This document shows, one piece after another, positions 39,283 through 40,428 of a stretch of DNA of 64,000 nt. Origin of the DNA: Candidatus Omnitrophota bacterium. Its GTDB lineage: Bacteria > Omnitrophota > Gorgyraeia > Gygaellales > JAHJCI01. Each line of letters opens with the position of its first letter. Positions within the stretch are counted from its first letter, which is position 1. The stretch spans positions 6,072 through 70,071 of the forward strand of contig JADHWR010000001.1 in the NCBI GenBank assembly GCA_016783355.1, written 5' to 3'. A model generated the notes under the pieces. It searched no databases. It worked only from the letters and a program-made list of their open reading frames with translations, and had not been told where the DNA came from. The position numbers and the translations under genes are program-made.

Positions 39283-40428
39283 TCAATCAGCAGTATCATA
39301 TCTATTCAGAAATTCTTTCTTAAATTCAACAAATCTATCCTCTTTGATTGCCTCTCTTATTTTTCGCATCAGCTCGAGATAGAAACAGATATTATGTAAA
39401 GACACAAGCCTCAGTCCAAGAATCTCATTACTGCAAAGTAAATGTCGAATATACGCACGAGAAAAATTTTGACAGCTATAACATGAACAGTCTTTATCCA
39501 AGGGAGAAAAATCGCAACTATAGGGGGCATTGCGAACAACTAGTTTTCCCTCACTAGTAAAAGCAGTTCCATTTCTGCCATAACGGGTAGGAATTACACA
39601 ATCAAACATATCTACGCCAATTTCTACTGCTTCTAAAATATCCTCTGGCATACCAACACCCATAAGATAACGCGCAGCATCTTTCGGTAAATTTTCAACA
39701 ATTTTATTTGTAATATTATAACTTAAACTTTTGGGTTCACCAACAGAAATCCCTCCAATAGCGTATCCATCAAAACCGATATCAACCAGTTGTCTTGCAC
39801 AATCCTTTCTTAAATCCTCGTAGGTTGAACCTTGCACAATCCCGAATAATAATTGCTTATCGCTTGCCCCGTTAGAAATATCATTTCTAACGGGGTTTGC
39901 GATTTGCGCCTTTGAGCATCTTGCCCAATCTAATGTCCTCTTCATAGCTTGCGCTGCATAATCCTTAGTGCAGGGATAATGTACGCACTCATCCAAAGGC
40001 ATCATAATATCTGAACCCAAAATCTTTTGGTATTCTATTATTGTCTTTGGAGTCAAAAAATATTTGTCTCCATTAATATGCGACTGGAACTCTACTCCTT
40101 CATTAGATACCTTACGCAACAGGGCAAGGCTAAAAATCTGATAACCGCCGCTATCGGTAAGTATGGGTCTGCGCCAGGATATAAAACGATGTAGCTGGCC
40201 TGCCTTTTTTATTATCTCTATGCCTGGCCGTAAAATGAGATGGTAAGTATTGGAAAGTAAAATTTGTGCCTCTGCTTCCTCTAACTCGCCGGGACTTAAG
40301 GTCTTCACGCTTCCCTGTGTACCTACAGGCATAAAGCAAGGAGTCTGGATATCGCCATGGGCTGTTGCGAGAACCCCCCGACGTGCTTTGCTTTTCTTGT
40401 CTTCATAAACTAATCTAAAGGGATTCAT
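39283..40428 (-). CDS. tgt: queuine tRNA-ribosyltransferase, carrying an 11-codon element insertion
   Basis: 381 aa. Has [37 protein letters not shown] and the zinc site C.C..C...SRAY..HL. Confidence 0.94.
39867..39895. mobile_element. 29-bp minimal TIR element in frame inside tgt (flanks cttg / tttg)
   Basis: The sequence reads cttg|ccccgttagaaat atc atttctaacgggg|tttg. It encodes [10 protein letters not shown]. Confidence 0.75.

Follow-up and report, generated by a model that had tools for sequence, protein, structure and literature searches.

Introduction

Short hairpin-forming repeats associated with a small nuclease have been described for the Ssn enzymes, single-domain GIY-YIG nucleases of 94 amino acids (aa) that bind DNA hairpin repeats of 20-50 nucleotides (nt) in single-stranded form and make their cut next to the repeat (Chenal et al., 2025; PMC11893778). 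The Ssn genes are bracketed by NTS repeats, and the authors call this NTS-ssnA-NTS layout identical to that of insertion sequences (PMC11893778). In this work we describe a 29-bp palindrome located in frame in tgt, the queuine tRNA-ribosyltransferase gene, of a Candidatus Omnitrophota bacterium (contig JADHWR010000001.1; the whole 64-kb stretch analysed is hereafter called the window), together with related elements that have the same ends, one of which carries a GIY-YIG gene. The likeness to the Ssn/NTS system is one of layout and domain: in both cases a small single-domain GIY-YIG protein (~90 aa) is encoded by a gene bracketed by a short hairpin-forming inverted repeat, which is also scattered in the genome, and the 29-mer is a hairpin of the kind that Ssn enzymes bind. 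The repeat sequence is unrelated, and the SRM pattern HGTCWYN(0-2)YYVSBRHN(0-5)WNVSBRGN(0-2)RNCYNB gave 0 matches on either strand of the window, which places the repeat outside the published SRM definition. Moreover, the gene lies here inside one split palindrome, in effect in its loop, whereas in NTS two complete hairpins flank the gene; a 4-bp target duplication is apparent here and none is reported for NTS; and NTS are rarely intragenic (2%), whereas four of the seven copies in the window are translated inside housekeeping genes.

Palindromes in coding sequences are also known from the Rickettsia palindromic elements (RPE), which the summary in PMC10969869 of the work of Ogata et al. (2000) presents as selfish repeats of ~100-150 bp, restricted to Rickettsia and, within what that summary covers, having no identified autonomous partner. 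Both groups lie in frame in unrelated housekeeping genes and are translated as extra surface peptides, the protein not being destroyed. The elements described here differ in their length of 29 bp (up to ~110 bp for other short forms), in their occurrence in many phyla, in a clear 4-bp duplication and in having a candidate autonomous form, so that size (29 bp) and host (Omnitrophota) set the tgt element apart from RPE. Miniature inverted-repeat transposable elements, or MITEs (for instance the Correia elements), offer a further parallel, as they have terminal inverted repeats and target-site duplications, are non-coding and multicopy, and have ends in common with a gene-carrying form. A length of 29 bp is far below that typical of bacterial MITEs. 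Inverted repeats and a 4-bp duplication were found on the tgt element, which is small, non-coding and multicopy (six short copies in 64 kb, and at least 119 stretches elsewhere). The parents of bacterial MITEs encode DDE transposases of 800-2000 bp (PMC10969869), whereas here the unit is 29 bp long, the sole candidate parent has 277 bp and a GIY-YIG nuclease, and no DDE partner was present in the loci examined.

Two other groups of hairpins deserve comparison. Repetitive extragenic palindromes (REPs) with their RAYT enzymes, and the IS200-IS605 Y1 systems, likewise combine palindromes of 20-40 bp with a small nuclease gene flanked by them, whose product recognises the hairpin; unlike the present elements, REPs are extragenic, show no target duplication and depend on a Y1 HUH transposase. 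REPs carry a GTAG or CGTC head (PMC3733652), while the ends of our elements start with CCCC, the copies are intragenic and the associated gene is of the GIY-YIG type, and identity with REPs was rejected. Translational-bypass elements, such as the gap of T4 gene 60 and the mitochondrial 'byps', are also short hairpin-forming coding insertions with short direct-repeat flanks; here, in contrast, the ribosome reads through, as frame-breaking copies are excluded from genes. The combination seen in the window is MITE- and RPE-like in behaviour and Ssn/NTS-like in build. The family is apparently undescribed so far: literature on its end sequence, and on GIY-YIG proteins with terminal inverted repeats, MITEs or transposons in prokaryotes, held no description of it, in a coverage that left out most subscription journals. 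We consider it likely that the 29-bp palindrome belongs, as a minimal and non-autonomous form (broadly speaking a MITE), to a family of mobile elements of very small size, whose full form of ~277 bp carries one gene for a single-domain GIY-YIG protein of 82-86 residues.

The 29-bp element as an insertion in tgt

At positions 39863-39899 the window reads cttg, CCCCGTTAGAAAT, atc, ATTTCTAACGGGG, tttg, i.e., two arms paired at 13 of 13 positions around a 3-nt loop, between short flanking repeats (Table 1). Shuffling of the window gives an expectation of 0.00 for the paired-end pattern, and single 13-mer ends with up to 2 mismatches occur 15 times against 1.7 expected. As single-stranded DNA the 29-mer folds at -13.6 kcal/mol (z = -9.0), with 0 of 200 shuffles folding equally well, and in the mRNA sense with its flanks the hairpin reaches -28.4 kcal/mol (z = -7.7). 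The perfect 13-bp stem with a 3-nt loop, in frame in tgt, which the original prediction had read from the letters, was thus borne out by both sequence and folding.

Table 1. Coordinates of the family elements, of their flanks and of associated genes in the window.
Feature	Position	Strand	Description
Second 29-bp form	16198..16226	none	CCCCGTTAGAAAC ttt GTTTTTAACGGGG; flanks CCTG/CCTG; precedes the AGGAGG-ATG start of a DJ-1/PfpI gene by 22 nt
68-bp member, in frame in coaE	26712..26779	none	YPVRS...TSNGA; flanks TAAG/TAAG
62-bp member, in frame in polA	29608..29669	none	GPVRS...TSNGA; flanks CCTG/CCTG
106-bp non-coding member	32066..32171	none	head to tail with the 279-bp copy, TAAA flank in common
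GIY-YIG open reading frame, 92 aa as called	32155..32433	-	passes the terminal repeat (..FRTG) into the neighbouring element before its stop
279-bp putative autonomous copy	32176..32454	-	ends CCCCGTTCGAAAT; flanks TAAA/TAAA; sole open reading frame is the GIY-YIG gene
tgt (queuine tRNA-ribosyltransferase), 381 aa	39283..40428	-	Pfam TGT 2.9e-158 over the whole profile; insert at residues 178-188
Extended palindrome	39859..39903	none	host arms ATCGC/GCGAT around the element; 21-nt arms, 86% complementary
Left 4-nt flanking direct repeat	39863..39866		CTTG on the + strand, CAAG on the coding strand
Minimal 29-bp element	39867..39895	none	13-bp terminal inverted repeats (CCCCGTTAGAAAT) on both sides of a 3-nt loop
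Right flanking repeat	39896..39899		TTTG, one mismatch in 4 positions against the left copy
65-bp member, in frame in infB	45216..45280	none	NPVRS...ISNGA; flanks CTTG/TTTG

The host gene is a complete tgt: its product matches bacterial Tgt structures at ~1e-121, and an identical protein is recorded as Tgt of a Candidatus Omnitrophica metagenome-assembled genome (MAG). All residues invariant in an alignment of 50 sequences are kept, including DSGG, DMFDCV and the Cys/His positions of the zinc site. In a larger alignment of 120 homologues, 66-74% identical and mostly from Omnitrophota, the 11 inserted residues occurred in 0 of the 119 others, none of which had a PVR..SNG signature, and in Escherichia coli Tgt a 9-residue gap opens at this position and the 11 residues are missing. 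Conservation of the segment in unrelated Tgt proteins, which had been named in advance as the finding that would count against an insertion, was therefore not observed. The closest Tgt without the extra length (73% identity) reads EQIA-KSDKQ at this position. In the nearest insert-free relative the DNA at the site is ATCGCAAAAAGCGAT (ATC GCA AAA AGC GAT), and in the window it is ATC GCA AA[C CCC ... GGG GCA A]GC GAT; from this comparison the insertion, composed of the 29-bp element and one 4-nt flank repeat, amounts to 33 nt or 11 stop-free codons, and the expected junction without them would be ...ATCGCAAG followed by CGAT.... Of the 13 residues originally ascribed to the element, the in-frame addition stood and the count did not, as the first A and the last S belong to the host. 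On the coding strand the flanks read CAAA/CAAG, and the alignment places the insertion of the tgt copy at a CAAG/CTTG target.

In the same relative the empty site reads ATCGC AAAAA GCGAT, and the element lies in the loop of a small host hairpin, ATCGC...GCGAT, older than the insertion itself. A preference for palindromic targets was considered as a family trait and rejected (2.33 complementary positions of 8 versus 1.91 in the control), leaving the tgt site as a local peculiarity. At the same position the tgt genes of other Omnitrophota (L122 3001-4164, L124 3001-4140 and L120 3001-4104 were compared) present a distinct phenomenon: relatives carry different in-frame palindromes made of tandem heptamers, as in (CATATCG)x4 ... 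(CGATAAG)x4 and (GTTATCG)x4 ... (CCGAACA)x4, the latter partly G-U paired. Both heptamer arms appear to have grown symmetrically from a basal ATCGC-loop-GCGAT hairpin. Heptamer growth at this tgt hot spot is a palindrome-growing process separate from the 29-bp family.

The stretch from WARRS to LFGIVQG ranges from 7 to 38 residues among the 120 Omnitrophota-type Tgt proteins. In the AlphaFold model, with a mean predicted local distance difference test (pLDDT) score of 83, residues 178-192 form a coil between the helix 155-177 and the strand 193-198, and pLDDT falls below 50 at residues 183-189. The linker and the modelled coil agree with the variable surface segment predicted just before LFGIVQG, and the insert is modelled as a low-confidence, probably disordered part of a length-variable surface loop. 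It could still be supposed that the host maintains the feature, either as an mRNA hairpin controlling the translation or stability of tgt or as a functional 11-residue loop of Tgt, as the hairpin is very stable and the different palindromes at the same tgt position in other Omnitrophota could mean that a hairpin is favoured there. We regard such selection as highly improbable, because unrelated genes, intergenic DNA and unrelated phyla all show the same sequence with its flanking duplication, because none of the other Tgt proteins among the 120 has the 11 residues, which are modelled as a disordered loop, and because Rfam gave no match at the tgt hairpin even at E ≤ 1.

Members of the family in the window and in other genomes

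The same 13-bp ends bound seven elements in the window, of 29-279 bp, six of them short, and all seven are flanked by a 4-nt direct repeat (Table 1). Of further 29-bp forms, for which a search had been suggested, the window has a second copy at 16198-16226, which is probably located in a leader and not in coding sequence, given its position 22 nt before an AGGAGG-ATG start. For the four intragenic copies (coaE, polA, tgt and infB) the length plus 4 is divisible by 3, and the translation follows xPVR[SN]...[IT]SNGA.

One genome per species was scanned for 185,579 species with the pattern CCCCGTTNGAAR-N(1-31)-YTTCNAACGGGG, which yielded at least 119 stretches; the counts of short copies that follow are among the matches listed. 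The listed stretches, all from MAGs, belong to Omnitrophota, many lineages of Patescibacteria (the candidate phyla radiation, CPR), Planctomycetota, Nitrospirota and Thermodesulfobacteriota, and Elusimicrobia, Gammaproteobacteria, a Bacteroidota chromosome, Riflebacteria and one archaeal MAG of the DPANN group (Aenigmatarchaeota) are further taxa among the matches listed. The ends are best described, from the compared copies, as 13-bp terminal inverted repeats of consensus CCCCGTTAGARAT with variants, accompanied by a 4-bp target-site duplication. The latter is indicated by the 4-nt flanks of 135 short copies, which were identical in 85 and had one mismatch in 21 (the class of the tgt copy), versus 2 identical pairs in a control using the next 4 nt outward. 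The duplicated sequence is varied and fits YNNR, with TAAA/TTTA favoured (39 of 85).

When a site was counted as open if at least 40 codons lay on both sides of the element, the frame was open through the element in 30 of 71 copies whose length plus 4 is a multiple of 3 and in 1 of 51 copies of other lengths; after in silico excision of the element and one flank, 32/71 and 4/51 were open, respectively. These counts indicate that family copies persist in genes almost only when the reading frame is preserved, and since frame-breaking copies have been purged from genes, the inserts are translated and not bypassed or spliced. Translational bypass or splicing was accordingly rejected as an explanation, with frame-breaking lengths almost absent from open reading frames (1/51 versus 30/71) and no Rfam match. 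The encoded peptides were always of the type PVR..SNG or PLE..LTG, and other hosts of the 29-bp form include SMC, ArsA, a family-57 glycoside hydrolase (GH57), a MiaB-like radical-SAM enzyme, CarB, an M28 peptidase and GAPDH.

Two further observations concern coding insertions. Family members often stand directly before the GFTLIE motif of prepilin-type N-termini (L022, L039, L063, L065, L097 and L117), in MAGs of Planctomycetota, Riflebacteria, Omnitrophota and CPR, the product being RRGFTPLE...FLTGFTLIE; GGN TTT ACN contains the favoured target TTTA, and G-F-T is restored by the element end, so that the signal motif is duplicated. In Omnitrophica UBA1562 (L071 1380-4772), a 1130-aa open reading frame contains two in-frame insertions, ..DKSTSQDKHYLTGFT.. 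and ..DKSMSQDKHYLTGFT.., and the same MAG has at least six 53-bp copies on different contigs.

According to the original prediction, the two terminal repeats can persist on their own, as a footprint or else as the smallest unit open to mobilisation, and this was supported. Among ~120 matches listed, 29 bp was the modal short length, with 27 copies; next came 53 bp with 20 and 33 bp with 12. For the 29-bp form (29 copies), the arms were perfect (13/13) in 23 of 29; the copies comprise 26 distinct sequences, and arm positions 12-13 show six pair types. The tgt 29-mer recurs identically in a Doudnabacteria MAG (L030), inside a gene for an ArsA-type ATPase, and one Omnitrophota MAG has an identical 29-mer at two sites with different flanks. 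Since 29 bp is the modal length, most short copies have their own 4-nt duplications, the arms are perfect in 23/29 and one MAG has the same 29-mer at two sites, the compared copies favour a mobile unit over a footprint.

The footprint would be a remnant formed in place, in which a longer member (62-68 bp or the 279-bp form) entered tgt and lost its interior via slippage across the hairpin or interrupted repair. Palindromes are deletion-prone, the short forms among the matches listed make up a length continuum (25, 27, 28, 29, 30, 31, 32, 33 bp and up), and the imperfect flank CTTG/TTTG suggests an old insertion, all of which would suit this idea. The peak at 29 bp is nevertheless sharp, with 27 copies versus 1-5 at neighbouring lengths among the matches listed and a loop constant at 3 nt, and many 29-bp copies lie outside open reading frames, where frame selection cannot account for the peak. 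Identical 29-mers at two sites of one MAG (L060, L088) also speak against a remnant, and a 279-bp precursor would break the tgt frame. In the window, moreover, both 29-bp copies have TTAGAA ends, whereas nearly all ends of the longer copies have TTCGAA. Taken together, these points make deletion in place quite unlikely.

The gene-carrying form

The GIY-YIG protein of the window matches Pfam GIY-YIG (3.3e-19) over residues 1-71, as a single domain with no other, and the last codons of its open reading frame (FRTG) are the terminal repeat itself. Its closest solved or annotated relatives are UPF0213 proteins, namely BH0048 (1zg2, 2.4e-11) and Bacillus subtilis YazA (45% identity), and the protein family comprises 1,393 clusters (50% identity) at E ≤ 1e-10. 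In four of the 119 stretches listed, a GIY-YIG relative occurs no more than 8 kb from the short form and is bounded by variant ends and 4-nt repeats; the gene stands between family ends in the window, L094, L084 and L030, the 4-nt repeats being CTCA in L094 and CATA in L030. In a Kerfeldbacteria MAG (L098 6100-6290), a 46-bp short member with CCCA/CCCA flanks is nested in a GIY-YIG gene of the same family, disrupting a putative autonomous copy. No GIY-YIG relative was confirmed on viral contigs.

A metagenome scan with an alignment of four protein sequences as the query returned at least 589 confirmed relatives, of which the best 80 loci, chosen by protein only, were examined. An inverted repeat surrounds the gene in 62 of these 80, 48 of which have the family core with at most 1 mismatch. 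Lengths of the gene-carrying elements peak at 277 bp in the 48 family-core loci, and the complementarity of their ends stops after position 13. Among their flanks, 15 are perfect 4-nt direct repeats, mostly TGAA or TGGA, and 13 are inverted (TTTA...TRAA). The right flank is almost always TRRA, which gives a stop codon straight after ..LTG; for that reason the commonest length of close GIY-YIG homologues is 86 aa, their end being the end of the terminal repeat. The end variants (CCCCGTTAGAGAT, TCCCGTTAGAG, TCACGTTAGAG and CCCTGTTAAATAA) track the protein lineages. Co-variation of the ends (positions 1, 4, 7-9 and 11-13) was dismissed as proof of hairpin pairing and is not counted for a single-stranded mechanism, because one protein reading both ends predicts the same pattern and the pairs were preselected for complementarity at positions 1-11. 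The 193 kb around the metagenome GIY-YIG genes contain 14 short elements whose ends match perfectly, several of them adjoining a gene-carrying copy, as in the window.

The association of this gene with the ends could also be that of a passenger, the palindromes being moved by another, unseen enzyme; the GIY-YIG gene could then be, for instance, a free-standing homing endonuclease gene targeting the centre of the palindrome, with the ends as the split halves of its recognition site. GIY-YIG enzymes are classic homing endonucleases and NCBIfam gives a weak match to a group I intron endonuclease; the gene occupies exactly the position of the 3-nt loop of the 29-bp form; the short and gene-carrying forms have only their ends in common; and a perfect direct flank is missing from many gene-carrying copies. 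On the other hand, ordinary homing by recombination would need more than 13 bp of homology per side, the ends co-vary with the protein lineage, as expected if the protein reads them, and the last codons of the open reading frame come from the terminal repeat and its stop codon from the duplicated flank. Nor did another transposase turn up between ends of this kind: ~1 Mb of related loci contained no transposase-sized element with family ends, and pairs 120-4000 bp apart with matching flanks, screened for a conventional transposase, consisted of GIY-YIG elements, of short elements in clusters or of separate short copies paired by chance within ordinary genes. We therefore judge a passenger role unlikely.

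Proposed mode of movement

In preference to a passenger gene, we infer from the arrangement of genes and ends that the GIY-YIG nuclease mobilises the family in trans. It would move both the 277-bp form and the short forms, and one such copy lies 7.4 kb from the tgt element. The protein would recognise the two 13-bp ends, either as duplex or as a stem in single-stranded DNA, like the Ssn nucleases. The target could be cut with a 4-nt stagger and then filled in, giving the duplication, and host repair or ligation would have to finish the joining step. The mRNA hairpin and the extra peptide would be tolerated by-products and not selected features.

Several points weigh against this proposal. To our knowledge, GIY-YIG nucleases are not known as transposases, nor do they carry out strand transfer by themselves. 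A 4-bp duplication points to a staggered duplex cut, unlike the activity of the single-strand-specific Ssn enzymes, and as the window covers only 64 kb of the genome, another transposase may be encoded elsewhere. As compared in the window, the ends of the tgt copy (TTAGAA) are one position off those of the resident GIY-YIG copy (TTCGAA), and the interiors of the short forms do not derive from the resident long copy. The flanks of the tgt copy agree at just 3 of 4 positions, and among the gene-carrying copies only 15 of 48 have perfect direct flanks, 13 having inverted ones. Finally, a same-species empty-site allele of tgt (GCGCAAATCGCAARCGATAAGCAATTA) was absent from the metagenome contigs scanned, so that no sign of recent movement was found.

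Other features of the window

Next to tgt, at 38786-38926 in trmD (- strand), there is an extra GC-rich segment with two hairpins (PEGPRAFSEKGRAYGASKGQRSLAKVGSRRSRGK) that splits the Pfam match in two, the TrmD protein having 256 aa versus 229-244 aa in relatives. Possibly this segment, too, is an element inserted in frame, from some other or a degenerate family. Other inverted repeats occur at 55746-55795, where GCCCTGTACCATACGGTACAGGGC is found twice back to back, and at 39177-39281, in the trmD-tgt spacer, as a 21-nt pair with 90% complementarity. A palindrome of the form TGCTCTAAAATTATC-NNN-GAGAATTTTAGAGCA occupies three intergenic sites (56984-57016, 63031-63069 and 12444-12476) and could be an operator or a terminator-like repeat.

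Two longer features are recorded here for completeness. A group I intron (Rfam, 88 bits, full length) lies at 63384-63707 (- strand), just upstream of tRNA-Leu(tag)/tRNA-Gly at 63117-63302. Between rpsL and the L7/L12-L10 genes, in the position expected for rpoB and rpoC, there is an open reading frame of 2466 aa (4580-11980, - strand), which could represent a fused or run-together rpoBC.

Significance

A bolder proposal, which we put forward tentatively and with somewhat less than even confidence, is that the 29-mer serves as minimal substrate to a transposon of a new class. Its sole encoded protein would be a GIY-YIG protein of 82-86 residues, its full form of ~277 bp would be far below the size of any known insertion sequence and its 29-bp form the smallest mobilisable unit, and it would move between phyla and remodel housekeeping proteins in frame on a scale known only from Rickettsia. 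If the GIY-YIG protein does move the elements, a nuclease fold would be added to the short list of transposase types, new lower size bounds would apply to an autonomous (~277 bp) and to a mobilisable (29 bp) element, and the Ssn-type nucleases would acquire a function in nature, that of driving selfish hairpin repeats. A 29-nt sequence that is possibly recognised as a hairpin by a small protein would also be an attractive reagent for single-stranded-DNA tools.

Whatever the mechanism, the colonisation of core genes by in-frame palindromes is not an oddity of Rickettsia, as it affects tgt, polA, infB and coaE in the window and SMC, CarB, GAPDH and a MiaB-like enzyme elsewhere. In-frame palindromic insertion is common in uncultivated lineages with small genomes, and this is relevant to annotation, to alignment-based phylogenies and to the way in which the surface loops of conserved proteins change.

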